Below, one piece after another: positions 6,109 through 37,283 of a DNA stretch of 57,122 bases. The notes below the pieces were generated by a model that was not told where the DNA came from, did no database searches, and worked only from the letters and a program-made list of their open reading frames with translations. Source of the stretch: Candidatus Woesearchaeota archaeon. GTDB taxonomy: Archaea > Nanobdellota > Nanobdellia > SCGC-AAA011-G17 > JAFCDX01. The translations under genes were made by a program, and so were the position numbers. The stretch spans positions 1 through 57,122 of the forward strand of contig JAFCDX010000005.1 in the NCBI GenBank assembly GCA_017609465.1, written 5' to 3'. Positions within the stretch are counted from its first letter, which is position 1; each line of letters opens with the position of its first letter.

Positions 6109-6200
6109 AGTGGTAGGTGGGATTTGAACCCACGATCTCAAGCTTTCTGCTTATGAGAAGCCACAGGCTTGCGTGATAACCAGGCTTCACTACTACCACC
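6109..6200 (-). tRNA. tRNA-His (GUG) with a 16-nt anticodon-loop intron and an encoded G-1
   Basis: Minus strand reads G-1, GTGGTAG, TA, GTGA-AGCCTGGTTA-TCAC, G, CAAGC, CTGTGG[CTTCTCATAAGCAGAA]A, GCTTG, AGATC, GTGGG-TTCAAAT-CCCAC, CTACCAC, T. No CCA is encoded. Confidence 0.85.
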
Positions 6201-8043: not shown

Positions 8044-8994
8044 ATGAGACACAGACCTGTAAGTTTGACCTTCTTGATTGAAAGTCTAGCAAAGAATCTT
8101 CAGTATGTATTTCTTGTAGTCCAGAGTCTTAGCTTGTTGGGGGTAATAAATTTTGACCTTAACCCAAATAATTTTCCAATATTATCCATAACATCAGAGA
8201 TAAATATTTTTTCTCAATACACTTATAATCCGGTTTTTATTTATGGACATTATTTATATATATTCTTGTTAATAGCAAAAGGATTTGCATTAAGCTTCAT
8301 AGATGCCCTGAGAAACAACCCTATAGCATCTATTATAATTGCACTATTAATAGTTAACATATGGTTATTATACAAGAGAAAGACAAGAACCAGTGATTCT
8401 GTATTGAAAAAAATAACAAAATCAATATGGAGGGAATCAAACATATTTGAAAGATCATTATGGATGATATTTTTCATAGATTTAATGGTCTTTATAACTT
8501 CCCCTAAGAAATTGGATATATTATTCCTGCTAATTTTATACCTATTATTTGCAAGCATAAGGTTTGTTCCTTTTATATCCGGAATCTTTATAGAACTCAC
8601 CGAAAAAATTGAAAAATCTGTATTTCATAACAAAAAAGTTTTGTATTTTGTAACTTTTATAGATATATTTCTGATATATTTTGATTCATCATCAATATTC
8701 ACATTATTCTTAATAACAATGGTTTACAATTCTGTTGCATATCTAGTAATGAAATTCCTGAAAGAGTTCAAGAAATTATGGGATTATGCCTTTTATGTTT
8801 TTAATTTTGGAATGTTAATATTTTTCTTTTCAATACTCTTAATATATTGGATATCCTTTTTTATTTCATTAATACTTCAAAGTCCATTGGTATTATACAA
8901 CTATTACAAGAGAAGAAAATTCATTCCAGAGAATTGGATGGAGATAGCTAACGCAATTTATTTAATAATATTTTTATTAATATTTTTTATTTAG
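8044..8994 (+). CDS. polytopic membrane protein, hypothetical
   Basis: 316 aa with many hydrophobic segments. Confidence 0.5.
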   Translation: MRHRPVSLTFLIESLAKNLQYVFLVVQSLSLLGVINFDLNPNNFPILSITSEINIFSQYTYNPVFIYGHYLYIFLLIAKGFALSFIDALRNNPIASIIIALLIVNIWLLYKRKTRTSDSVLKKITKSIWRESNIFERSLWMIFFIDLMVFITSPKKLDILFLLILYLLFASIRFVPFISGIFIELTEKIEKSVFHNKKVLYFVTFIDIFLIYFDSSSIFTLFLITMVYNSVAYLVMKFLKEFKKLWDYAFYVFNFGMLIFFFSILLIYWISFFISLILQSPLVLYNYYKRRKFIPENWMEIANAIYLIIFLLIFFI

Positions 8995-9319
8995 AAAGTT
9001 CCATTATGGATTCTGCTATATCTCCATTTTTTTCTTTAAGGGTTTCAATAACTTTTTCCTTTTCTGCATTTGTTTTTTCCATAACCAATTCTATATCTTC
9101 ATCTGAAGGAACATATTCTCTTGCTTCTTCAGTTACATCTCCCGATACTTGAAAGGAAATTTTTCCCTGCATGTCCACTTTTGAAACTTCAGGGTTGTTT
9201 ATTATTATGTTTTTATCAGAAGTTTCTATGATAACTCTTTCAGCTTCTACATCTTCCTGCTTTATCCCGAGCCGCTTCATTGCAGCTTTCACCATTTTTG
9301 GATCCATTTGAGGCATCAT
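8987..9319 (-). CDS. nac: nascent polypeptide-associated complex protein (NAC)
   Basis: NAC domain 'MVKAAMKRLGIKQEDVEAERVIIETSDKNIIINNPEVSKVDMQGKISFQVSG' and a C-terminal UBA-like 'DIELVMEKTNAEKEKVIETLKEKNGDIAESIMEL'. Start set at 'MMPQMDPK'. Confidence 0.85.
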   Translation of the reverse strand: MMPQMDPKMVKAAMKRLGIKQEDVEAERVIIETSDKNIIINNPEVSKVDMQGKISFQVSGDVTEEAREYVPSDEDIELVMEKTNAEKEKVIETLKEKNGDIAESIMELSK

Positions 9320-9320
9320 T

Positions 9321-9476
9321 TTAAAAAAACTTGTATAAGACAAATTCAAAAATTATTACTAATACTATAAAAATTATGAAATACATAGGTTTTATTGATA
9401 TTTTGCTCTTGTATTCATCAAAATACCTTATTAATCCCCCTCCTGAAGAAGGCATTTGTATTTTTTCATTTGCCAT
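9321..9476 (-). CDS. secG: preprotein translocase subunit Sec61beta (archaeal SecG)
   Basis: 51-aa ORF below the track cutoff: 'MANEKIQMPSSGGGLIRYFDEYKSKISIKPMYFIIFIVLVIIFEFVLYKFF'. It has the conserved GL-x-RYFDE motif plus a C-terminal TM tail anchor. Confidence 0.75.
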   Translation of the reverse strand: MANEKIQMPSSGGGLIRYFDEYKSKISIKPMYFIIFIVLVIIFEFVLYKFF

Positions 9477-10272: not shown

Positions 10273-11841
10273 TTATCCACTAGGGTCTAAATATTCATAT
10301 TCCTCTTTAATCTTATAAAGAATGATAGCAAATAACTTAGCTGTTATAATCGGCTTTTCTGAGAGTTTTCCATAAATATTCAGGCTTACACAAATGTTAA
10401 TTAAAATCCAAAGATTATATAAACAAACACTAAACAGAAAGTAAAATAACCTTATATGAAAATTTCTGCTTGTAGTCCTTGCTAAGAAATCATGGTCTAA
10501 TTGCCTATAACTTGTTTCAATTCCCCATCTAAATTTATAAAACCTAAATAAATAATGAGTTAACTGCTCTGGGATATCCAAGTTGGTTGAGAAAGCTCTT
10601 TTAATTCCATTTTCATCATTAACTAAAACTAGGTTTGTTGTTGTATTTCCTATCTTAAAATTCTTTATTATTCTTGACTTGCAATCTTCTCCTTTATCAA
10701 GCCACTTCTTTACCGTTGGGCTTCTAACTTTGGGCATAATGAATTTTATGTTATTTCTATTCATAACATTAATAATTTCTGTTCTGTCAAATCCCCTGTC
10801 CATATAACAATGTCTTATCTTTATTTTAGATTTTGCTCTTTTTATCAATCTTTCAACTAATGTTTCAAGATTATCAAAAGGACTCATAGGAATTGCATCT
10901 ATTGTAAATCTTCCTCCTGGTGTTACTATTGCACATGTAATGAAATGGAAAAACTGTCTCGTCCCAATACCTTCAGCTACTCCACCTTTGATATAATTGG
11001 GATTTATATATTTTCCATAATAAGGAACCTTGTGAATATCTATTGCTATATCAAATTGCCTATTCTTTAACATATTATATTCTTTCTTTACAAAATTGAA
11101 TACAAAATCAAATATGTTTTTGAACATTAATTCAATCTTTTTTATGTCATCAAACTTTTTGAAGTGATACATTATAGTATCTGAATCTGGTATCTTGATG
11201 TTGGGGTTAAGTTCTTTATAAGTCATAGAACCATTATTACAAAAATCGTGAGAGTAAGCTACGTGAACGAGTATATCTAAGAAATCTTTAGTAGTGAACT
11301 TTGCATTATGGTTTATTTTTATGTTAATTTTAGGATAAATAAATTTTTTGACTAATTTTATTGTCTCTTTAATTGCCTTATTCTTTTTATTTATGCTTTC
11401 TCTATTTTTTCTTAGTTCTTTTTTCACTAATTCTACATCTAAAACAACGTTATTTTGAGTTGCTATTATAAGAATCTTTTCAGCAATATTATCAAGTTTT
11501 GTTTTTATATCCTCTTTGTTATGAAAGAAACGATTAAAAGTTCTTTTAGTTGGTAATAATGTGTTATTATTTTTATCTTTAGTAAATCCTAAATTATTAA
11601 TATCATCTTCTGTTAAAGATTCTATTAATCTTGGGTAATTTGTAATGCCTTTTATCCTTTTAAATAAATAAAGCCTTAAAATGGACTCTGTAGAATAGAT
11701 AGCATCCTTTCTATTCAAATTATTAAAAATAGAAATATCTAATTCAGATAAAAGAAAGGACACCTTAAGCCAGCTGGTTTCAGAGTTTCCCAAAACTTTT
11801 ATAAGCTGGCTCTCTATATCTTTACAGGAGATATTCTTCAT
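10273..11841 (-). CDS. DDE transposase, IS4/ISH3-like
   Basis: 522 aa. Candidate catalytic triad regions are 'FDIAIDIHKVPYYG', 'CYMDRGFD' and 'RWGIETSYRQLDHDF' (the Y-x2-R-x3-E type signature). Confidence 0.85.
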   Translation of the reverse strand: MKNISCKDIESQLIKVLGNSETSWLKVSFLLSELDISIFNNLNRKDAIYSTESILRLYLFKRIKGITNYPRLIESLTEDDINNLGFTKDKNNNTLLPTKRTFNRFFHNKEDIKTKLDNIAEKILIIATQNNVVLDVELVKKELRKNRESINKKNKAIKETIKLVKKFIYPKINIKINHNAKFTTKDFLDILVHVAYSHDFCNNGSMTYKELNPNIKIPDSDTIMYHFKKFDDIKKIELMFKNIFDFVFNFVKKEYNMLKNRQFDIAIDIHKVPYYGKYINPNYIKGGVAEGIGTRQFFHFITCAIVTPGGRFTIDAIPMSPFDNLETLVERLIKRAKSKIKIRHCYMDRGFDRTEIINVMNRNNIKFIMPKVRSPTVKKWLDKGEDCKSRIIKNFKIGNTTTNLVLVNDENGIKRAFSTNLDIPEQLTHYLFRFYKFRWGIETSYRQLDHDFLARTTSRNFHIRLFYFLFSVCLYNLWILINICVSLNIYGKLSEKPIITAKLFAIILYKIKEEYEYLDPSG

Positions 11842-11995
11842 GGGATACTCCTTCTGGGGTCAGGGGCTCGCAGTTCCTCCCCAGATATCTTTCTAGGCTT
11901 AATCGCCTATGTTCTTGACATAATACTCGCCTTGTTAAAGGTTCGAATTTGCCTTTATTTTTACAATATTTGCATTGTTTCATTTTAACCTCCAT
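11822..11995 (-). CDS. small zinc-finger ORF overlapping the transposase start
   Basis: 57 aa: 'MEVKMKQCKYCKNKGKFEPLTRRVLCQEHRRLSLERYLGRNCEPLTPEGVSHEEYLL'. It ends 20 nt inside the transposase ORF in another frame. Confidence 0.35.
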   Translation of the reverse strand: MEVKMKQCKYCKNKGKFEPLTRRVLCQEHRRLSLERYLGRNCEPLTPEGVSHEEYLL

Positions 11996-12127: not shown

Positions 12128-12491
12128 ATGGTATTTTATAAATGGAGTATTGTAAAAAATAAAAAGTATCTACAAATCGCAGAGAGTGAACGAATAAGTG
12201 GAAAATCGAAGCATAAAATTTTGGAACATTTAGGGACTGCTGATAAACTTCTTTTAAGATTAAGGGGTATAAAAAATGAATAGCGAAGAACTTATCTTGT
12301 GGAAGAAAAATAATAATGAATTGTTAGAAAAAATAGATAATTGGAGAAATTCATATTCTTGCGAATATAATTGTAATGATTGGGAGAAATGGAAATTTTG
12401 TAAACACTTAAGAAAAAATATGGTTAAAAAATTCAATAAAGAAATAACTAAACAAATAAATAAATTAATAACTATTAATAATGTTTTTTAA
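12128..12491 (+). pseudogene. possible remnant of a second transposase (IS1634-like N-terminus)
   Basis: 51-aa ORF 'MVFYKWSIVKNKKYLQIAESERISGKSKHKILEHLGTADKLLLRLRG', followed in another frame by the 71-aa ORF 12276..12491. The 'YLQI-x-ES-x-R-x-GK-x-K-x-x-ILE-x-LG' pattern recalls IS1634-family N-termini, recalled from memory. Confidence 0.3.
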
Positions 12492-13608
12492 GTAGACTAT
12501 CTTTTAAATCAATTTTAAAGAATTTTTTTACTGGTTGATAGATATATTTTTTTCTTTTTAAATAAGTTCTATAATCATTTTCTAATATTTTGTCCCTCGA
12601 ATAAATAAACTCATTGAAGCTAGAACATGTATTATGACATGCAATAGCTTGTCTTAATAATTGTGCTCCATTAAATACTTTGAGGAAATTGTTCAAATTT
12701 CTTTTTTTCCCCATAAAATTATCAACAAAACAATCACAATTTAATTTGTTTTTATACATTTGTTTATGTTCATTTATATCAATTTCACCAAGTGTATTAG
12801 AATCAAATCTTTTTGGTATACTTTTAATTTTTTTAAATTTACCCAATGGTAGTGGTCTTGATTTTAAAGCAAAAGAATCAATAGAAAAAAGTGGCATAGT
12901 ATGAATTAAGGAACATTTATTAAAAATTTTATTTCCAACCTCAGATAAATGTAACCAAATATCCTCATCACACATATTATTTATAAGATGGGAATAATTT
13001 ACATAATTTTCTTTTATTGGAGCATAAACTAAATTGATTATATTAATATTGTTATTAACACAAATTTTTAATTTTCCTCCGAATTTTCTCCAATCAGTAT
13101 CTAATCTTATTACAGGCATTGGTTCTGCAATAGAATCTGATTCTTCTATTTGTTTGATAGAACGTTGTAATCTTTTTTCAAATTCTTTTTCTGAAGAATT
13201 ATATTTATCTAATATAGAAATAGCATCAATATCACTTTGGGTTTGTATATCAATCATTACTTCATTAATTCTATCATTTATTTCTAAATTTTTTTCTAAT
13301 GAAGGATGAAATATGGTTATTCTGTTATTAAATCTTTTTGATTTCTCAACAATTTGATTTTTTAATCCGATAGAAGCTTCGGCATTTTTAATCATATTAT
13401 ATATACTATCACTTTTTATATATTGGGTTACTTCTCCTATTTGGTGTGGAAAATTTAATTTAACTAATCCACTTTTCTCTAAGCTTAATCCATGTTCCAT
13501 TTCTCTAGAATTTAATACTCTTATAGGTGTTGTAATATCATCTCCAGCTTCTCTTATAATTCCTGCCCTTGCGGTCATACTTCTTCCACATAATTTGAAT
13601 TTAAACAT
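12475..13608 (-). CDS. divergent TGT/DpdA-like (queuine/archaeosine transglycosylase fold) protein
   Basis: 377 aa. 'MFKFKLCGRSMTARAGIIREAGDDITTPI' resembles the TGT N-terminus, 'KSDSIYN' resembles TDSGG[FY]Q, 'DIQTQSDIDAISILD' resembles IQ..LG.DI.M.LD, and 'LFSIDSF' resembles G.D.FD. 'CDCFVD...ACHN' resembles the Zn site CxCxxC...H with the third Cys missing. Confidence 0.5.
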   Translation of the reverse strand: MFKFKLCGRSMTARAGIIREAGDDITTPIRVLNSREMEHGLSLEKSGLVKLNFPHQIGEVTQYIKSDSIYNMIKNAEASIGLKNQIVEKSKRFNNRITIFHPSLEKNLEINDRINEVMIDIQTQSDIDAISILDKYNSSEKEFEKRLQRSIKQIEESDSIAEPMPVIRLDTDWRKFGGKLKICVNNNINIINLVYAPIKENYVNYSHLINNMCDEDIWLHLSEVGNKIFNKCSLIHTMPLFSIDSFALKSRPLPLGKFKKIKSIPKRFDSNTLGEIDINEHKQMYKNKLNCDCFVDNFMGKKRNLNNFLKVFNGAQLLRQAIACHNTCSSFNEFIYSRDKILENDYRTYLKRKKYIYQPVKKFFKIDLKDSLLKKHY

Positions 13609-13866
13609 CTATTTCACCTCTAATTCTATCTCCTCTGCAACCTTTTCTAGTTGCTTTAATTGATATAATTTCATTCTAGCATCATCAGGATGTTGTTCGC
13701 TTAATAACCACCCAGCTTTTTTTAATTGTGATAAAAATAAATTTACAATTCTTGAATCATCTTTTAATATTTCTTGTGCTTTTTTAAATGTAAACTTCCT
13801 ATTACCTAATTCTTTTCTTAATTTAAAATATCTTCTCAAAACCCATTTTGCTGGTAAATCTGTCAT
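13609..13866 (-). CDS. winged-helix DNA-binding protein
   Basis: 85 aa. 'FTFKKAQEILKDDSRIVNLFLSQLKKAGWLLSEQHPDDARMKLYQL' shows the helix-turn-helix plus wing pattern of MarR/ArsR-like wHTH proteins. It abuts the TGT-like gene start with no gap. Confidence 0.5.
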   Translation of the reverse strand: MTDLPAKWVLRRYFKLRKELGNRKFTFKKAQEILKDDSRIVNLFLSQLKKAGWLLSEQHPDDARMKLYQLKQLEKVAEEIELEVK

Positions 13867-13963
13867 ATATTTATATATATGTTAATAATATATAAACTTT
13901 TTGTATCTATAAAAAATAATGGTATTATTTAAAAAGTCCATTTACTTTTGAAAATTGGTCAAA

Positions 13964-15337
13964 ATGGACAATTTATGGATTTTAACAGAAGAGAGACCCA
14001 AAAAAGAAGTTCTAACAACAATAATAAAGAAAATATGTATTGATAAAGGTTTTATTTGTAAATTTAATGATTTGAAGATTAAACCAATTATTAAAGGTAC
14101 TAAATTTAAATTTACTTACGAATTGCTTGGTATTAAAATAAATACAATAAATAAGATTTTAATTAAAAATGTAAGTGGGAACAGCAGTTTTGTTGATTTT
14201 TTAATATTTTTACAAGAAAAAGAACCTTCTAAGGAAGATAGCCCATTATATGCTATTGAAGAAACTAAAACAGATGATAGTGAATCAAGAAATACTGGGG
14301 TATATCAAAGGTGTTCTAAATTTGTTTTTGTAGATTTATATTATCCTAATTGTAAGAAAGTTATGTTATATAACTTAAAAGTTAAATCTAAGAAACCAAC
14401 AGAAACAAATATCTTTGGAACAAGAATGTTACTAACATTAGATGTCGAAATTATTGGTAAGGATTTAGACCAAAATATCTTTAAGAGATTTGATAGTATT
14501 GAGGAATTAATTAGATTTAAAGACAATATGATGGGGGCACCAAAAGGCAATATTCCTATTTTAATTACTAAAAAGAATAATAAAATAAAAATATCTGGAA
14601 GATTATGGAAGGCTGGAGGACTTAGTCATGACCCAAATATTGGGGCTTTATCAATAATAGCAAAAACATTAAGGGAATTGGGATGGAAAAGGGATATTAT
14701 TATAACCCATCACGGATTATCTCAAAATCATTTGAATAAAAGAAATAAATTTATTAAAATAGCTAATGAAATTGGAATAAAAATAGATGGATTAAATATC
14801 CCTATTAGTGAACTCCATAAAGAATATTGGCATTATGAAAATAATTCAGAAAAACTTGGAACTATCTTCCTGCATTTAATTTTGGAAGAATTAAAGAATG
14901 TTCGTGGAATATATGAAAATCATGCTGGTTGTGAAAGGGGATATTTTTACACTAAAAATAATGAACCCATAACATTACATAAATATATTGAAAATACAAA
15001 AGAAAAAGGAAAAATACCAAAAATTCCAGATTTAATAGTAGCAGATGATAAAAATAAAATCATCTTAAATTTAGAAGGTAAAACTTATAATAAAAAAATA
15101 GATGGTATAAATGAGATTAAAGGATTTGATACAATAGAGAATGAATATATTAAAATTAAATATCCTAATTATAAGATAATTAGAGGAGTTGTTCTTTTTG
15201 GAAGTAATGAAAATAAAATAACAGATTCTGAAGTTATTTTCTTATTAAATAAAAATGGGGATATGGTAACTTCAAAAAATACACCAAAAGTAATTATAGA
15301 TGCAATAGAATTAGCTATTAACCTTAACAAAGAATAA
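13964..15337 (+). CDS. putative restriction endonuclease with two PD-(D/E)xK-like motifs
   Basis: 458 aa from the first ATG. N-terminal motif 'VDFLIF...PLYAIEETK' and C-terminal motif 'IPDLIVADDKNKIILNLEGK'. It is flanked by DNA methyltransferase genes. Confidence 0.5.
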   Translation: MDNLWILTEERPKKEVLTTIIKKICIDKGFICKFNDLKIKPIIKGTKFKFTYELLGIKINTINKILIKNVSGNSSFVDFLIFLQEKEPSKEDSPLYAIEETKTDDSESRNTGVYQRCSKFVFVDLYYPNCKKVMLYNLKVKSKKPTETNIFGTRMLLTLDVEIIGKDLDQNIFKRFDSIEELIRFKDNMMGAPKGNIPILITKKNNKIKISGRLWKAGGLSHDPNIGALSIIAKTLRELGWKRDIIITHHGLSQNHLNKRNKFIKIANEIGIKIDGLNIPISELHKEYWHYENNSEKLGTIFLHLILEELKNVRGIYENHAGCERGYFYTKNNEPITLHKYIENTKEKGKIPKIPDLIVADDKNKIILNLEGKTYNKKIDGINEIKGFDTIENEYIKIKYPNYKIIRGVVLFGSNENKITDSEVIFLLNKNGDMVTSKNTPKVIIDAIELAINLNKE

Positions 15338-16351
15338 TAATTCTTTTAATGGAGATTTTATGTTATTTCCATTGCAATTACTTTTATATCTTCTATATTC
15401 CTTTTCATATATTTTTACATCTCCTTTTTGAGATAAAATTCTCATAATCTCATTATATGGAATTATTCCCTCTGTATTATAACTAAACAATATATATTTA
15501 CATTCTGCATTATTTATTAAATCTTCAAATGCTTCAATACATCTACTTTTTTTACAATATTTAGATATCTGATTTTCGTAAGGTCTAAGTCCTGTTTTTG
15601 TATCCATAATTTTTTTATCCCATACGGATATTGATTCAAGTATGTGATAGTTTGTAGCATATTGCCTATTATTGTAAGGGGGGTCAATATATAATATATC
15701 ACAAAAGATATTATTAATTAATTTATTTGAATCTTCTTGGTAACAATCATTCTTTATATTACTTTTAATTAAATTAGGAACTTTTAACATAAGTGTTTTA
15801 AACATTCTTGGGTCGTTTATTTTCATAAATGCACCATAAGTTCCAGCAACATTTGAAACTGAAGGAACAACTTCTAATAAAGAGGTTAATAAAATATAAA
15901 ACTCATCTTTTGATATTAATTTACTATTCTTCCATTCTTCTATCTTATCCCGAATGGCATCTATTTTTTTAGCATTTTCAGTAGAAAAATAATTTCTTTT
16001 ATAATTAGAGTTTTTAGTTCCTTCAATACAATAATTATTGTAAATAAACCCTTCTTTTCCTTTTAGACTATTTAAATAGTTTATAACTTTGAATATATTT
16101 GGTTTATCTATTATCTTATTTAATCTCTGAAAGTTAGGTATCTTATTATTTTTAATATAAGCATTTTGAAAAACAAAAGAATAATTCATAAAGTCGTTTG
16201 AAATTATTTTAAATCCTTTATTCTTAAAAAATTTTGCTACATTTGTAGTCCCACTGAATATATCACATAAAGTTCCTTTTTGAATATTATTTTCTTCTAC
16301 AACAGAATTTATAAATTCTAATAAATTAATTTTATTTCCTATATATCTCAT
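15311..16351 (-). CDS. DNA adenine methyltransferase, Dam/D12 class
   Basis: 'MRYIGNKINLLEFI', 'DIFSGTTNVAKFF' and 'ILYIDPPYNNRQY'; 346 aa. Confidence 0.85.
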   Translation of the reverse strand: MRYIGNKINLLEFINSVVEENNIQKGTLCDIFSGTTNVAKFFKNKGFKIISNDFMNYSFVFQNAYIKNNKIPNFQRLNKIIDKPNIFKVINYLNSLKGKEGFIYNNYCIEGTKNSNYKRNYFSTENAKKIDAIRDKIEEWKNSKLISKDEFYILLTSLLEVVPSVSNVAGTYGAFMKINDPRMFKTLMLKVPNLIKSNIKNDCYQEDSNKLINNIFCDILYIDPPYNNRQYATNYHILESISVWDKKIMDTKTGLRPYENQISKYCKKSRCIEAFEDLINNAECKYILFSYNTEGIIPYNEIMRILSQKGDVKIYEKEYRRYKSNCNGNNIKSPLKELLFFVKVNS

Positions 16352-17319
16352 TTTTCCTCTTTTCTGAATATAAGGATATATTGATGAAGTTGATTTGCAA
16401 CAAAAGAGAATGGGTATCCATAAGGATAGAGATTTAATGTTTTATCATACCATATTTTATAACCTTTAAATTGTAAATTGGATATTTTATATAATTCTTG
16501 AATAATATCTGCATGAAGAAGATTATGATGTTCTTTTGTTGGTTGCATATCTTTACAAAATACAACAATATATCCTTTATTTTTTAAAAACATTAATGAT
16601 TTTTCTATAATTAATCTAAACTCATTAAGGAATTCTTTGTAATTTATATTCCCTAAGTCTTTTTGATTGCTAGTGAAGTTTCCTTTATCTTTTCTATCCC
16701 CTCCAGTTCTCTTTTTAGAGAGCATATTTGCATATGGTGGGTCTGTTAAAATTAAATCAAATGTTTTGGATTTAACTTCTTTAAAATTATCTAAATTTCT
16801 AGCATCACCTTTTTTTACAATTTGTTCTTTAAGACCTTCTTGTTTTGTAACTTTTTTATAAACATCTAAATATTTTTGTTCTAAATCTATCCCGACTGCA
16901 TTTCTAGGAGGTTCACATAAAGATGCCCCTAAAAGAGTTCCACCTACACCAACAAAAGGGTCTAATATCCAACCATCTGATTTGGTAAAGAAATTTATAA
17001 TCTCTTTCATTAATGCAGGTGGTTTTGGTGAAGGGTGTATCTTTCTTAATTTATGTCCTATGGTATTTTTTCCATTTGTGGTATAATAAGTAGGAATTAC
17101 GGAATCTTGTAGATATTTCCATAATCTTAATTCATCTTTGTTTGAAGAAAAATCTGTTTCTGAGATTGAATTTATAAAATGAGTCCATTCTTTACCTGTT
17201 AATTCATTGAGGGGATTTCTAATATCATATTTTCCCCTTTCTCCTAAATCAATCCCAAATTTACCGACTCTTTTTTCTTTATGAGATTTAATCAAATTAG
17301 TTTGTGTATCTTTTTTCAA
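16348..17319 (-). CDS. N6-adenine/N4-cytosine DNA methyltransferase (DPPY type)
   Basis: 'HPSPKPPALMKEIINFF...ILDPFVGVGGTLLGAS...GIDLEQKY' is the SAM-binding region. It is followed by 'LILTDPPYANM' and 'HQYILIFRK'. It overlaps both neighbours by 4 nt. Confidence 0.8.
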   Translation of the reverse strand: MKKDTQTNLIKSHKEKRVGKFGIDLGERGKYDIRNPLNELTGKEWTHFINSISETDFSSNKDELRLWKYLQDSVIPTYYTTNGKNTIGHKLRKIHPSPKPPALMKEIINFFTKSDGWILDPFVGVGGTLLGASLCEPPRNAVGIDLEQKYLDVYKKVTKQEGLKEQIVKKGDARNLDNFKEVKSKTFDLILTDPPYANMLSKKRTGGDRKDKGNFTSNQKDLGNINYKEFLNEFRLIIEKSLMFLKNKGYIVVFCKDMQPTKEHHNLLHADIIQELYKISNLQFKGYKIWYDKTLNLYPYGYPFSFVANQLHQYILIFRKEEK

Positions 17320-17981
17320 GTTTGTTTCACCTCCTTTATCAATTCACACCATTTACATTCTTTATTTGGACATTTATTATTTAATAATTTTATAGCTTCT
17401 TTAAATACTTTTTTACCATTCTCAGTATTTGTTTTCATCTTTATTAATTTTGTATCAAATATAACTTCTCCAGTTTCAGTAACTTCCTTTGGATAATAGA
17501 ATATTAGATAAGTATAATCCTCTGTTTCATAGCCATTCTTTCTTAAAAGGAAATTATAAATCTCCATTTGTAATTTATAATGCTCATGAGTATCATCTTT
17601 ACAGGGATAACCTCTTGTCTTATAATCAAGAACCACTAATTTCTTACCTTTTTTCAAGATATTATCAACTGCTCCGTGCAATATGTTTCCTTTTGAGTCT
17701 GTCCAAGAAATCCCTTTAAAATTGCTTCTCCATACCTTTAATAATTCTTTATCATCAAATAATCTATAATCTTTATCTAATCCATTCTCACATAATTCTG
17801 GTGGAAGTTCTCCTTTCTCCATGAATCTGTCAAAATGTTCTTTAAGGATTTTATCCATACCAGAAGGTAAACTTGGAAATATTGATGGGGGTCTCTTCCA
17901 GACTTTATGTTGTGTTAACCAGAAGCATCTAGGACAATCTATCATTAGATTAATTGAGCTTGGGGATAATTTAAATGTCAT
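17316..17981 (-). CDS. Cas4/RecB-like PD-(D/E)xK nuclease with a four-Cys cluster
   Basis: N-terminal 'CPRC', 'HGAVDNIL...LVVLDYKTR' (D...DxK), 'YKLQMEIY' (QxxxY) and C-terminal 'CPNKECKWC'. It is the first gene of the operon with the two methyltransferases. Confidence 0.75.
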   Translation of the reverse strand: MTFKLSPSSINLMIDCPRCFWLTQHKVWKRPPSIFPSLPSGMDKILKEHFDRFMEKGELPPELCENGLDKDYRLFDDKELLKVWRSNFKGISWTDSKGNILHGAVDNILKKGKKLVVLDYKTRGYPCKDDTHEHYKLQMEIYNFLLRKNGYETEDYTYLIFYYPKEVTETGEVIFDTKLIKMKTNTENGKKVFKEAIKLLNNKCPNKECKWCELIKEVKQT

Positions 17982-18057
17982 AGATTTTAGAATAATTGAA
18001 TTTATATAAATATTGTGGGCAAGAAAGATTTATATAATATCTCCCACTAAATATATT

Positions 18058-18426
18058 ATGGTTATTCAAAAAAATTCTGATATCATGCATAAAACCCTAA
18101 TTAGAAGTATGATTAGAAAACTTGAATCTGAAAATTATACTGTTCAAGCAGACCATATCGGATATAATAAAGAAGTAAAAGAAGAATGGGGTGGAGAAAA
18201 ACCAGATATATATGCTTATAAAGGAAATAATAGTAAAGTATTTATTGAAGCAATAACAAAAGATAATATAAATTCTAAAGACCTCAAAAAGAGATTGGAG
18301 ATATTATCTGGAAAATCAGAAATAGAATTTTGGATAATAACTACAAAAGATTTTTTAGATGAATTAAAAAATAAACTTAAAGAATGGAATATATTATATG
18401 ATAGATTATTCTTTTTTGAGGAATAA
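18058..18426 (+). CDS. hypothetical protein, possibly a restriction-endonuclease-like fold
   Basis: 'EKPDIYAYKGNNSKVFIEAITK' loosely fits D-x(n)-E-x-x-x-K. The start codon is uncertain because the track ORF starts at TTG 18013. Confidence 0.3.
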   Translation: MVIQKNSDIMHKTLIRSMIRKLESENYTVQADHIGYNKEVKEEWGGEKPDIYAYKGNNSKVFIEAITKDNINSKDLKKRLEILSGKSEIEFWIITTKDFLDELKNKLKEWNILYDRLFFFEE

Positions 18427-20585: not shown

Positions 20586-21130
20586 ATTCTGTGTAAAAAC
20601 TCCACAATCCATATAAACAAGATAATGTCCCACTTATTGAATATTTATAGCTATTTTTCAAAATCTCTTACTTTTCTCAACTGAAAATTTAGCCATTACA
20701 GATGTTCTAAAGCCATTTTTTGCTTTTCGTGTCCCACTTACGTACATTCGGAACTACTTTTAATCAGTAGATCGGCAAGTAACATAATATTAAAATTAGA
20801 TTTATTATAAAAATAAGAAAACGTACATAGGGATTGTAAAATAGAGTCTTTTAGTAACTGCATGCTAAATACCTCGTTGCCTTGGTACGTACACACCAGT
20901 TCTATCAAACCTGTCTTTTGCAGGGGACTCAAGTGTCTCTTTTCGAGGTATCCTTCGAGCTTAGATGCTTTCAGCTCTTATGATTTGAAGCGTAGCTGCT
21001 CTGCCTACCTTGTCAGATAACAGATACACCAGTGGCTTCGAGCCATCGTTCCTCTCGTACTAAATGGTCCTTCCTCTCAGACACTCACACCTCCACCAGA
21101 TATTGAACAAACTGTTTCACAACGTTCTGA

Positions 21131-21784
21131 CTCTGGGAACAGGAGAGACTCACAGATTCAAAGAATCAAGTCTCCTCTGCTTTTCTGGATGAATAAAACC
21201 AATTTTCTTTTTGAATATGATTAAAGAATTTCTCTCACGAATTGTTAGTCTGTATTGGTCTTTTGATTCTGTAAAATTTAGCCCACATTTAATTCCTAAA
21301 TCTTCAAGGAAATTTTTTAAATTAATAACTAAATTATTACTCTTTGACCAAAATATTATTTGAGGATATTTTTTGTTATTTTTGGTGTCAAATGAAATTG
21401 AACCATCTCTTGAAAATAAACCTTTAATAAAATCCAATTTTTCATTGAATTTAATATTTGGAAGATCTATAGTTTCTGATTTCTTACCTCTTGGAATACA
21501 ATATATGTTTTTTAATTTGTTTTTTAGTTTCTTATTATAGATATATAAGACATATCTATTTTTTTCAAATCCACTTTTTGATTTCCATATCTTTGTTTTG
21601 TATTTTTTTGACATTATTGAAACTTTTTCAAGGAAATCCTTGTTGGATGTTATGAAACGTATTCCATGGTAATCTTTGTCGAGATGTCCATCACTTGCTA
21701 TTAATCCTGCAAATAATGCTAAATCTGTTTTATTCATCTTAGCAGAGAAGCCTTTCTTTTTAGTAAATCTTGCTCTCAAGTTCT
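21131..21784 (-). mobile_element. 23S rRNA intron carrying a homing endonuclease gene
   Basis: Removing 21131..21784 restores the conserved exon junction 'GAGCTGGGT|TCAGAACGTTGTGAAACAGTT'. The boundary can slide by a few nt. Confidence 0.8.
21150..21779 (-). CDS. LAGLIDADG homing endonuclease (double-motif)
   Basis: 209 aa with motifs '[14 protein letters not shown]' and '[12 protein letters not shown]'. It fills almost the whole intron. Confidence 0.9.
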
Positions 21785-23276
21785 ACCCAGCTCACGAGCC
21801 GTTTTGATGGGTGAACACCCCCACCCTTGGCTGCTTCTGCACAGCCAGGATACGGCGAGCCGACATCGTCGTAGCAAACCGCGCCGTCGATTTGAGCTCT
21901 TAGGCGCGACAACTCAGTTATCCCCGGAGTAGCTTTTCTGTCATCCCTAGCCCCCACCAATGAGGACATAGGGGTTCGCTAAACCCATGTTTCCATCCTG
22001 CATTCCTTATTGTTCGAAATACAGTCAGGCCAGCTTATGCTTTTGCACTCTACTCAGGATCTTTAGTACCTATAGGATTTTTCGTTAACATTTTCCTAAA
22101 AGGTTATTCTAAACCTGATGAGCTGACCTTTGGGCCCTGCTGATACCGTTTCAGCAGGGTGCCGCCCCAGCCAAACTGTCTACCTACTGATGTTCCCTCT
22201 TTCGAAGGTTAGCGATGCCGATTTTAAAGGGTGGTATCTCACTATTGTCTACACTCAAACTAGCGCCTGAGTTTTAACAACTCCCACCTATACTGCACAT
22301 CAAAACCAACACCACAACAATAGACTACAGTAAAGCTTCACGGGGTCTTTACTTCCCGCTGGAGGTCTCTGGCCTTTGCACCAGAATAGTGTGTTCAGGG
22401 GCTTCAAGCTAGGGACAGTAGGGATCTCGTTACGCCATTCATGCAAGTCGTCATTAAAACGACAAGGTATTACGCTACCTTAAGAGAATTACAGTTATTC
22501 CCGCCGTTTACCAGTCTTTACTTCCCTTGAATAGGAGATTCAGATACTGGCACTGGGCAGACTTCATCTCCTGTACAAACCTTTTCAGGCTAGCAGGAAA
22601 CTACGTTTTTGTTAAACAGTCGGACCCCTCTTGTTACTGAGCCCTAAATTCGCCCGAAGACAAATTTAGGGATCCTTTATCCCAAAGTTACAGGACTAAT
22701 TTGCCGAATTCCCTTAGCTCGATTAAACCCTCACACCTGAGGCTTCTCACCTAGGGTACCTGTGCTGGTTCTGGGTATGATCATTCAAGATTCATATTGT
22801 TTCCTTTTTCACGGGCTCATGGCATCAGCAAAACTACCTAAAAGATAGCTCATCTCAAATTTAATCAAGTTCTCATCATTACAATACTCCCTTGATTTAT
22901 TTTGATTAATATATCAGACAAGATATAATTGCCTAGCCTTAAGCGTCAGAAAACAATCTTTCGTTGCCGATTGTACTTGAATGGTAAAGGAATTTTAACC
23001 TTTTTCCCTTTCTCATCTTCCTATTTACGGAATAGATTAGGATCAACTTACTCTCAGCTGATTTGCATTGCTGAGAAACCCTTACCCTTTCGGTGTCAAA
23101 GATTCTAACTTTGTTCAGCTCTTACTACCACCAGGATTCTCATTTCTACCAGGTCCATATCTTTTTACAAAAATATTTCTTCCCCGATAGAACGCCTGCC
23201 TACCATTTCTTTAGAAATCTATGGTATCGGTAATCAACTTAGCCCCGTCCATTTTCAGGGCATACAATCTTGACAG

Positions 23277-23319
<43 letters not shown>

Positions 23320-24498
23320 TACCTCCCTGCTGTCTGTGAATGTACACACCTTTCACCCGTTAACACTTAGTTGATATTTTGGGACCTTAACCATAGGCTT
23401 GGGTTGTTCCCCTCTTGGGACACGAGCTTACCCCATGCCCCCGTTTCCTGAAATCTACGATGTTCAAGATTTTTGAGTTGGACAAAAAGCCGAGGGATTT
23501 CTCCCCCTAAACTTTAAATCCGTAGCTTTACACCTTAAACTATCTCATTCAAGACTGGACTACGGCCCATTTCGGCAGGAACCAGCTATCACCGGTCTCG
23601 ATTGGCATTTCACCCCTAAACCAAGATCAGAAGAACGCTTGCTCACAGAACCTCTTCAGGCCTCCATCTCCTTTTACAGAGATTTCACCTTGCCCTGGCT
23701 TAGTTCGACCGGTTTCGGGTCGTATCCAAATGACTTAAAGCATTTTCATACTTTTCCCCTCGTGAACTGCGGGATTTCGCTTTCGCTTTGATTTCTCTTT
23801 GTAAAGATTAATCTTGCCACTTAGATACACTCCCTGGTCCGTTATTCGAAACGTACGATGCAATTCCTAAAAACAGCATCATACTATGACCGTTAGGTTT
23901 CAGGCTCTTTTAACTCCCTGTTACGGGTTCTTTTCAACGTTCCATCACTGTACTATGCGCTATCGGACTTGAAATAATATTTAGAGTTAGAAGTTGATGT
24001 CTCCCATATTCTGACTTAATATCCAATAAGCCATACTCTAGATACCTCTACTCCTCTTAAATTTTTCTTACGGGACTATCACCCTCTTTGGTGCTTCTTT
24101 CCAGAAAACTTCAGATGGTTTAAGTAAGGATAAAAAGAGGTCTAAAACACCACATCTCCTATTCATTTCTGAAAGGATTCAGTTTGCCCTGTTCCGCTTT
24201 TTCTCGCTGATATTAACGGAATCTCATTGATTTCTTTTCCTGCAGGTACTAAGACGCTTCAATTCCCTGCGTGAGTCTTCCTTACGGAATTCAAAAGACT
24301 GAGGTCAGATTCAGGAATACTCGGTTCTAAGGCTGCTTGCACCTCGCCGAGTCTTATCGCAGCTTGCCACGCCCTTCATCACATTTCAAGCCAAGTCTTC
24401 CACCTAACGGCTTAAGAGCTTTACAATCCCTATGCACGATTAATATAAATATTAATCCTTGGACTTAAACTTTTGTTATAAATCCGCATTTAAAAAAA

Positions 24499-24598
24499 TG
24501 GACCTGTCGGGAAATTCACATTTCTTATTCTAAAAAATGTTTTGAACCCGAGACCCCCGCCTTGCAAGGGCGATGCTCTTCCGCTGAGCTACAGGCCC
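24499..24598 (-). tRNA. tRNA-Ala (UGC) in the 16S-23S spacer, with a ~28-nt intron in the T-loop
   Basis: GGGCCTG TA GCTC-AGCGGAA-GAGC A TCGCC-CTTGCAA-GGCGG GGGTC TCGGG TTCAAA[ACATTTTTTAGAATAAGAAATGTGAATT]T CCCGA CAGGTCC A. G3:U70 is present. The intron (about 24513-24540) contains the ACATTT/AAATGT helix. Confidence 0.8.
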
Positions 24599-37188: not shown

Positions 37189-37283
37189 GCCGAGGTCGCA
37201 TAATCTGGTATTGCACCGGACTGCTATATTATGTGGTTATCCGGGCCCTTCGGGGCGTCTGGGTTCAAATCCCAGCCTCGGCG
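37189..37283 (+). tRNA. tRNA-Ser (GCU) with a ~12-nt anticodon-loop intron
   Basis: GCCGAGG...CCGGA CTGCTA[TATTATGTGGTT]A TCCGG, a long variable arm GCCCTTCGGGGCGT, then CTGGG-TTCAAAT-CCCAG CCTCGGC G. Confidence 0.8.

Follow-up and report, generated by a model that had tools for sequence, protein, structure and literature searches.

A 57,122-nt stretch of contig JAFCDX010000005.1 of a Candidatus Woesearchaeota archaeon (referred to below as the window) encodes a 377-aa protein that proved to be intact and to belong, as a strongly diverged member, to the tRNA/DNA-guanine transglycosylase (TGT) superfamily. The family of this protein carries no annotation and is encoded as an autonomous cassette, coupled to a gene for a winged-helix-turn-helix (wHTH) protein. 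Often there is a third, exchangeable gene: in the window's subgroup a small Cys/Trp-rich open reading frame (ORF), and elsewhere a gene for a membrane protein or a DUF4258-like protein. The cassette often lies beside restriction–modification (R-M) systems of any type and is tied to none. We tentatively regard it as a self-regulated defense- or toxin–antitoxin (TA)-like cassette with the TGT fold as sensor or effector, a reading that we place slightly below an even chance.

The initial annotation of the window had proposed a TGT-like protein from scattered motifs and suggested comparisons with PF01702 and DpdA profiles and with an AlphaFold model. As a single sequence, the protein matched PF01702 with an E value of 0.065 and 12.7 bits, below the gathering threshold of Pfam (26.3 bits), and this weak match was collinear (residues 274–354 with profile positions 272–352). 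Single-sequence searches gave no PADLOC match and only noise in NCBIfam and the Protein Data Bank (PDB), where phmmer returned ribosomal protein L1; a profile of five sequences had no match in the PDB. A word-indexed homolog search found four relatives, all metagenomic, and an exhaustive HMMER search with the profile of those relatives found 230 representatives (clusters at 50% identity, E ≤ 1e-3), mostly of 370–390 aa. The family profile was built from 124 full-length members. It matched the archaeosine TGT (ArcTGT) of P. horikoshii (PDB ID: 1iq8) with an E value of 2.8e-8 in three collinear pieces, namely the N-terminal sheet, the 'lQ..g.di.t.pD' strand, and the 'CxCPxC...HE' zinc site. PF01702 was matched individually by 34 of the 124 members (E ≤ 1; best E = 4.3e-6), and each other Pfam family by at most two. 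Comparison of the family with E. coli Tgt by hhalign gave a probability of 90.7% (E = 1.2e-6) over 321 columns.

The AlphaFold2 model computed from the 124-member alignment was very confident (pLDDT 96.3, pTM 0.94), and the best 50 matches of a Foldseek search against the PDB were all TGTs (E = 2.1e-12 to 3e-11, TM 0.55–0.64, ~400 aligned columns). An earlier model from five sequences (pLDDT 48.9), for which Foldseek returned TGTs mixed with other TIM barrels at E ~1e-2, was not used. In the model, the (β/α)8 barrel and the Zn subdomain fill the whole protein. No Pfam match to PUA or TGT_C was found in the 377-aa protein, and the model leaves no room for the C1, C2, and PUA domains of ArcTGT and ArcS, in agreement with the short protein without C-terminal domains that had been described. 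The family profile and the predicted structure thus bore out the proposed superfamily assignment and barrel, and no DpdA model was matched. Taken together, they confirm the 377-aa protein as a true, very distant member of the TGT superfamily at the fold level. Judged in this way, its resemblance to TGTs is beyond chance and visible at the profile or structure level only, the protein identity being 13–14%.

The likeness to ArcTGT, the Z. mobilis TGT, and QTRT1 (PF01702) extends over the full length of the structure. It comprises the (β/α)8 barrel, the N-terminal three-stranded sheet ('GxR...TP'), the strand with the guanine-recognition Asp ('LQ...D.I.IPD'), 'GxD' at strand 8, and the Zn subdomain (CxCxxC...H). 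Unlike these enzymes, the family protein has a sub-gathering Pfam score, Ser, Ala, or Thr at the position of the nucleophile, and, in the window's subgroup, Asp as the third Zn ligand; it has neither TDSGG nor PUA, C1, or C2 domains, is paired with a wHTH protein, and occurs patchily in variable islands.

The active site was mapped by hhalign profile–profile alignment and two modes of MAFFT, which were in agreement, whereas hmmalign of E. coli Tgt onto the family HMM aligned the Zn region only. The Zn ligands C291, C293, D296, and H325 align with C279, C281, C284, and H307 of the P. horikoshii enzyme and with C302, C304, C307, and H333 of E. coli Tgt. At the third ligand position, 88 of the 124 members have Cys and 22 have Asp, the latter being the residue of the window's subgroup (D296). 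The Asp that recognizes guanine or 7-deazaguanine by its Watson–Crick edge is D156 in Z. mobilis TGT, D143 in E. coli Tgt, and D130 in both the P. horikoshii enzyme and DpdA; HMMER, hhalign, and MAFFT agree that it corresponds to D134, in a column with Asp in 88 and Glu in 18 of the 124 members. The acid/base residue is D102 in Z. mobilis TGT, D89 in E. coli Tgt, and D95 in DpdA, and the nucleophile is D280, D264, and D256, respectively. E. coli D89, which lies in TDSGG, a motif absent from the 377-aa protein, aligns with N75 in a variable column (25 Lys, 19 Asp, 18 Ser, and 15 Asn of 124). The nucleophile D264 aligns with A247, and the family column is Ser in 77, Ala in 19, and Thr in 10 members. 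E. coli D261, the first Asp of GxDxFD, aligns with D244, which is kept in 109 of 124. Independently of any alignment, residues 60–111 contain no conserved acidic residue, the nearest being E59 (108 of 124) just upstream, and D244 is the only conserved acidic residue within 236–268. The family-conserved residues are E59, P102, Q122, K179, N204, H220, S222, H236, D244, and D269.

The motifs named in the initial annotation can be judged against this map. The N-terminal 'ARAG..TTP', the strand 'IQ..SDIDAISILD' with D134, and the zinc site 'CDC...CHN', with D296 as the third ligand, had been assigned correctly. 'FSIDSF' does match GxDxFD in position, but the second Asp of that motif, the nucleophile, is Ala here. 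'SDSIYN', equated with TDSGG, is not conserved even in the five closest homologs. D269 ('RFD') was considered as a nucleophile and rejected; it maps by hhalign to a β-hairpin after strand 8.

The three catalytic-site Asp residues are invariant across TGTs and DpdA, and the D95A and D256A mutations abolish the activity of DpdA (PMC10164549). In the present family, the Zn subdomain, the scaffold, and the guanine-recognition Asp are retained, and the canonical acid/base and nucleophile Asp residues seem to be lost. Because the latter two positions, essential in DpdA, hold non-acidic or variable residues, the label 'transglycosylase' appears doubtful. Because the Zn subdomain and D134 are kept and the catalytic pair appears lost, the most likely reading is that the protein can still bind a guanine-type base flipped out of tRNA or DNA and does not perform the canonical double-displacement exchange; it probably does something new. 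D244 and E59, the only conserved carboxylates close to the canonical positions, could form a relocated catalytic pair.

As had been described, the 85-aa wHTH gene is directly upstream of the TGT-like gene without a spacer: its stop codon directly precedes the TGT-like start codon (0 nt), so that the pair is translationally coupled. At other loci, the two genes overlap or are separated by 2–30 nt. A wHTH gene lies upstream, directly or one gene further, in 25 of 27 testable independent loci, and the arrangement is shared by at least 24 independent loci drawn from several phyla of archaea. The 85-aa gene is found upstream of all four closest homologs (48–72% identity) and in locus L018 (40–43%). 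Its product is MarR-like (Pfam MarR, E = 0.042; PDB MarR 9qdr, E = 0.026 over the recognition helix and wing), an assignment that is weak but consistent. Distant members have a partner of 155–225 aa, of which 12 of 13 matched the wHTH family DUF4364 and 5 of 13 matched SocA_Panacea (best E = 8e-4, under the Pfam cut-off). All three long partners tested matched the PADLOC defense candidate PDC-M19A (E = 3e-13 to 6e-11), and the 85-aa partner of the window had no Panacea match in Pfam. The short and long partners were also compared as candidate homologs, a relationship that is not demonstrable (hhalign 2.4%).

Three architectures recur, so that 'orphan', the word used in the initial annotation, is misleading. 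In architecture A, the wHTH gene is followed by a membrane protein gene (175–207 aa) and the TGT-like gene. In architecture B, a gene for a DUF4258-like protein (~95 aa) precedes a Zn-ribbon-wHTH gene and the TGT-like gene, with a fusion in L014. Architecture C, the type of the window, consists of a short wHTH gene and the TGT-like gene. It has in addition a small convergent ORF that overlaps the 3′ end of the TGT-like gene and is conserved in four loci. In the window, this ORF codes for 71 aa with the motif W..Y.C...C..W.KW.FC.HL; homologs stand at the same position in L001 (54%, E = 4e-26), L010 (47%, E = 6e-22), and L018 (E = 1.7e-4 to the window and 1.4e-8 to L001). Pfam gave nothing credible for it, the single noise match being Ty3_capsid (E = 0.014, far under the cut-off). 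The 71-aa ORF is a probable third component of the cassette in the window's subgroup.

A putative promoter precedes the wHTH gene, with a TATA box (TTTATATA) at −30 to −23 from the start codon and an A/T palindrome (CATATATA) at −15 to −8. From this placement, the cassette mRNA would be nearly leaderless. The same layout is found 5′ of the wHTH gene in L001, L009, and L011. The TATA+ATATAT pattern is expected 0.03 times in shuffled sequence, yet it is also present at two other promoter-like sites of the window, and for this reason the palindrome is regarded as an operator only tentatively.

The IS element and R-M genes reported around the pair were identified as a DDE_Tnp_1 transposase, a divergent restriction endonuclease (REase), and two methyltransferases (MTases). 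R-M genes adjoin the cassette in 5 of ~24 independent loci, the type differing each time. The window has a Type II system, L001 a Type III system, L018 an AlwI-type (Type IIS) system, and L083 HsdM-HsdS-HsdR (Type I); in L015, the cassette is inserted between the genes of an EcoRV-like REase and a D12 MTase. An HKD+Snf2 protein adjoins the TGT-like gene in L014, a DinG-like helicase is found in L135, and L101 and L136 are set among toxin–antitoxin-type genes. The closest relative of the window is L001. Between the two, the PD-(D/E)XK gene (67%), the wHTH gene (72%), the TGT-like gene (69.5%), the small ORF (54%), and the IS (54%) are kept, and the R-M genes between the PD-(D/E)XK gene and the wHTH/TGT-like pair are exchanged (window 13955–17981 versus L001 3877–9643). 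In the window, the slot is occupied by a Type II set of one REase and two MTases; in L001, it is occupied by a Type III-like set made up of a 603-aa Mod, a 264-aa unknown protein, and a 785-aa Res. This is a clean R-M cassette exchange at one chromosomal site. Because the R-M genes were swapped and the cassette was kept, the cassette is independent of any particular R-M system and lies at a variable hot spot. In L015 (3957–8021; also in L016, L017, and L047), the wHTH, membrane protein, and TGT-like genes stand exactly between the EcoRV-family REase and D12 MTase genes, on a single strand with minimal spacers and immediately 3′ of a NAC gene; the island of the window is likewise near a NAC gene.

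The family is rare and patchy, with ~230 clusters at 50% identity among 1.84 billion representatives, and 20 of 20 sampled clusters were named 'hypothetical protein' or had no name. Loci were collected with a degenerate DNA pattern (FD-x3-LG-x11-G-x4-CxCxxC) that recovers ~1/6 of the family sequences, so the locus sample is biased; many locus contigs are short. In JGI metagenomes, 71 stretches matched the pattern and the family HMM confirmed 17, corresponding to ~14 further independent loci. In 185,579 GTDB species genomes, 41 stretches matched; the true members were five archaeal metagenome-assembled genomes (Methanomassiliicoccales, Methanobacteriota, Methanotrichaceae, Thorarchaeota, and one unclassified archaeon), and none of the 36 bacterial matches was a family member. 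A close-relative scan of GTDB genomes found none. The neighbors at metagenomic loci are archaeal too (NAC, Rpb6, RNA polymerase subunit N, NurA with Mre11 and Rad50, and Fae-Hps). Among the sequences found here, the family is confined to archaea. Two close-relative scans and one motif scan of viral collections gave no relative on viral contigs, and tblastn gave no match on plasmids. Full-text and term searches of the literature found no description of the family. In three related methanogen-type contigs with a Fae-Hps fusion nearby (L043 5965–7161, L030 6715–7911, and L035, all on the minus strand), the family gene contains a single in-frame TAG at codon 312, which is retained although the alleles differ elsewhere. 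Pyrrolysine read-through could account for it, as could a split that is tolerated. A frameshift is present in the Thorarchaeota copy (L130).

Here, we propose how the cassette may work. The TGT-fold protein would be the nucleic-acid-recognizing core, either sensor or effector, of a self-regulated cassette, and the winged-helix protein would repress the operon and/or restrain the TGT-fold protein. The variable small proteins would be effectors. The TGT-fold protein itself may cleave glycosidic bonds through a relocated mechanism (D244 and E59) or act by binding alone. This defense- or TA-like reading is favored because, as in defense and TA modules, the core is constant while its membrane or RNase-like partners vary, the first gene is small and codes for a DNA-binding protein, and the genes are tightly coupled and have a promoter of their own. 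A more far-reaching version is that the family represents a new archaeal immune or TA-like system. Its TGT-fold core would sense or attack a particular base of tRNA or of invading DNA through its guanine/7-deazaguanine pocket and Zn subdomain without base exchange. It would be under wHTH control, and a DUF4258-type RNase, a membrane protein, or a small Cys/Trp protein would serve as its exchangeable effector. We consider this version possible but doubtful.

A parallel in operon organization is offered by the PanAT-like type II TA modules and PDC-M19, which likewise have a small DNA-binding or Panacea-like first gene, tight coupling, cross-species conservation, optional third genes, and a place in defense islands (PMC8832971). 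With its two or three genes, spaced by no more than 100 nt and conserved across species, the cassette is organized as PanAT modules are, but a Panacea (DUF4065) domain was not found at the Pfam threshold, the best long partner reaching the E value of 8e-4 given above. A term search of the Panacea paper (PMC8832971) turned up no TGT-fold toxin. What the family shares with PanAT-type modules is the operon logic alone, and its toxicity is putative. BREX-related capture (BRC) loci with GNAT/TGT modules also contain a TGT homolog in a defense locus without DpdB or DpdC (PMC12839542); they are made up of HerA/FtsK, PglZ, a STAND NTPase, and DUF4007, none of which is present in the loci examined here.

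Several points weigh against the defense- or TA-like reading. The loss of the catalytic Asp residues rests on alignments at ~14% identity, and D244 (109 of 124), three residues away from the position of the nucleophile, could take its place. The Panacea similarity is sub-threshold and missing from the short wHTH of the window, for which homology with the long partners could not be demonstrated. The window's subgroup has no obvious separate effector, and the promoter-proximal palindrome may be a generic promoter feature. R-M genes occur in only 5 of ~24 loci, several of them on short contigs, and other loci are beside housekeeping genes only (a ribosomal operon, Mre11/Rad50/NurA, and SecD).

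Of the alternatives, a DpdA-like DNA-guanine transglycosylase survives best, although we consider it unlikely. The enzyme would insert a 7-deazaguanine (preQ0 or a relative, from the archaeosine pathway or the host) into DNA, with the wHTH protein as a loading or targeting partner replacing DpdB, and the mark would protect self DNA or cooperate with the restriction genes. Like DpdA of the bacterial Dpd systems and the phage/viral DpdA1-4, the family protein belongs to the TGT superfamily, is encoded among defense and R-M genes, lacks tRNA-specific domains, and has a partner protein. Its TGT fold, Zn site, and guanine-recognition Asp are intact, the HKD+Snf2 protein after the TGT-like gene in L014 has DpdE/DrmD-like matches, and D244 with E59 could be a relocated catalytic pair. 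DpdA families are also very divergent, DpdA4 having been recognized by HHpred alone (PMC10516641). Against this stand the acid/base and nucleophile positions, at which Asp is not conserved here, whereas DpdA retains all three catalytic Asp residues and both of these are essential to it (PMC10164549). PADLOC returned no DpdA match for the window protein or the L015 family member and no Dpd component among six scanned neighbors. PHROGs gave matches only to families without known function (best E = 9.4e-4, one of five members), none annotated as TGT or DpdA. The Pfam family of DpdA4, DUF6610, was not among the matches listed for the 124 members (best 25 of 69 families) and is therefore matched by at most one of them. 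The best Foldseek match among BFVD viral structures had an E value of 1.5e-3, so phage DpdA structures match only at that level or worse, and no member is virus-borne in the scans described above.

The partners differ as well. Bacterial DpdA is accompanied by the ParB-like ATPase DpdB, DpdC, and the restriction genes dpdD-K, and phage DpdA travels with preQ0 synthesis genes (PMC6884629, PMC10516641). Here, the PADLOC models of DpdB and DpdC had no match in seven island genes (the pair, the REase, both MTases, the PD-(D/E)XK gene, and the ORF at 18013–18426), neither protein was found in any locus, and no homolog of QueC, QueD, or QueE was found in the window or in any locus examined, FolE not having been searched for. 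The statement of the initial annotation that preQ0 genes and a DpdB-like partner are missing stands to this extent, FolE excepted, and its view that the module does not resemble the Dpd or phage DpdA cassettes described so far agrees with all of these searches.

A housekeeping role in tRNA modification, as a divergent TGT or a non-catalytic tRNA-binding subunit of the QTRT2/ArcS type with the wHTH protein as an ordinary transcription factor, appears more improbable still. The best sequence and structure matches are indeed tRNA enzymes (ArcTGT, bacterial TGT, and QTRT1) and not DpdA, and translation or housekeeping genes adjoin some of the loci. A TGT fold without the catalytic pair has a precedent in QTRT2, whose barrel and Zn domain are kept and in which Asp279 is changed to Glu and Asp105 to Cys (PMC6165067). 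By analogy, the family protein behaves like such a derivative with a lost catalytic pair, but in a very different setting. QTRT2 dimerizes with a catalytic paralog for tRNA modification, whereas here no canonical TGT is close by, the recognition Asp is kept, and the protein belongs to a wHTH cassette. The distribution argues against a housekeeping factor, with ~230 clusters overall and five species genomes in a scan that recovers ~1/6 of the family, one copy being frameshifted. So do the lack of a PUA or other C-terminal tRNA-binding domain and of tRNA-modification genes linked in any locus. The wHTH coupling, the swappable membrane and DUF4258-like genes, and the variable IS/R-M islands are atypical for housekeeping tRNA enzymes.

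Known controller (C) proteins of R-M systems have an Xre-type HTH fold. That the cassette is an accessory of the adjacent Type II system, with the wHTH protein as a C protein timing the REase from a divergent promoter and the TGT-like protein as an extra R-M subunit, is very improbable. The wHTH and REase genes do diverge from each other across a spacer of 88 bp that holds the A/T palindrome, and the L015 cassette is inserted between REase and MTase genes. The wHTH protein is, however, MarR-like and not of the Xre type, and its gene precedes the TGT-like gene, whatever adjoins, and not the REase gene. In L001, the pair is kept downstream of a Type III Res gene where the Type II system is absent, and other members are beside Type I or Type IIS systems or no R-M genes. 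The controller role suggested for the wHTH protein in the initial annotation is therefore unlikely.

Least credible of all, and rejected here, is a decaying gene or an IS passenger without function, the 'decayed TGT' also considered at the outset: an IS and a transposase fragment adjoin, and two family members have an in-frame stop or a frameshift, but the reading frame of the window is intact, its product is 41–70% identical to homologs with ~90 invariant positions among the five closest, a sharp motif set is maintained over ~230 clusters and several archaeal phyla, the AlphaFold model is very confident, and the partner genes are conserved.

To our knowledge, the TGT superfamily is the sole route by which 7-deazaguanines enter tRNA and DNA, and DpdA-type enzymes are now taken as the signature of 7-deazaguanine DNA modification. 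The family adds a further deep branch, found only in archaea here and nameless in the sampled sources, that keeps the recognition and zinc elements, apparently without the catalytic pair, and is locked to a wHTH gene in defense-island cassettes. It may widen what the fold can do chemically, for instance toward base excision, a different nucleophile, or pure base sensing, or it may prove to be a new class of archaeal defense or TA module. Little of archaeal immunity beyond CRISPR and R-M has been charted (PMC12988326). A concrete test set is available in the ~230 sequence clusters, the three architectures, and the candidate residues defined here.

The features of the island are collected in Table 1. 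The host chromosome is archaeal, as indicated by 16S and 23S rRNA, RNase P RNA, and SRP RNA of archaeal type (Rfam). The G+C content is ~0.28 for the window and 0.22–0.25, below the window value, for the island at 12–19 kb.

Table 1. Genes and elements in and around the cassette (window coordinates)
Feature	Position	Strand	Remarks
NAC gene	8987-9349		near the window's island
IS transposase	10273-11841	-	DDE_Tnp_1, E = 7e-8; downstream of the TGT-like gene
Cys/Trp-rich ORF, 71 aa	12276..12491	+	convergent with the TGT-like gene, 17-nt overlap at its 3′ end; probable third component
TGT-fold protein, 377 aa	12475..13608	-	intact ORF
Winged-helix (MarR-like) partner, 85 aa	13609..13866	-	ORF; stop codon directly abuts the TGT-like start codon
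Putative cassette promoter	13867..13896	-	TATA box TTTATATA and A/T palindrome CATATATA
Type II REase	13955-15337	+	PADLOC REase_II, E = 1.5e-66; divergent from the wHTH gene
D12-class adenine MTase	15311-16351	-	
N6_N4 MTase	16348-17319	-	
Cas4-like PD-(D/E)XK nuclease	17316-17981	-	

The Cas4-like PD-(D/E)XK protein starts with 'CPRCFW' and has a C-terminal Cys cluster (CPNKECKWCE), as in Fe-S nucleases of the Cas4/AddB type; no CRISPR or cas genes were seen around its gene in the window. Two short ORFs, at 12128–12283 (plus strand) and 11822–11995 (minus strand), separate the cassette from the IS and are found in L001 with 71% and 73% identity. The former is probably an IS remnant; we take its 'KYLQI..S.R..GK..H..LEHLG' motif to be similar to the N terminus of IS1634/IS4-type transposases.

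Outside the island, the 23S rRNA gene (20932–24427, minus strand) is split into two Rfam matches (21710–24427 and 20932–21085), and the piece between them carries a 209-aa ORF (21150–21779) with a LAGLIDADG-type motif. The interruption resembles an rRNA intron that encodes a homing endonuclease. Rfam called four tRNAs in the window and ARAGORN two. The calls of odd length, 56 nt at 24543–24598 in the 16S–23S spacer and 91–95 nt at 6109–6199 and 37189–37283, suggest intron-containing or otherwise atypical tRNA genes.

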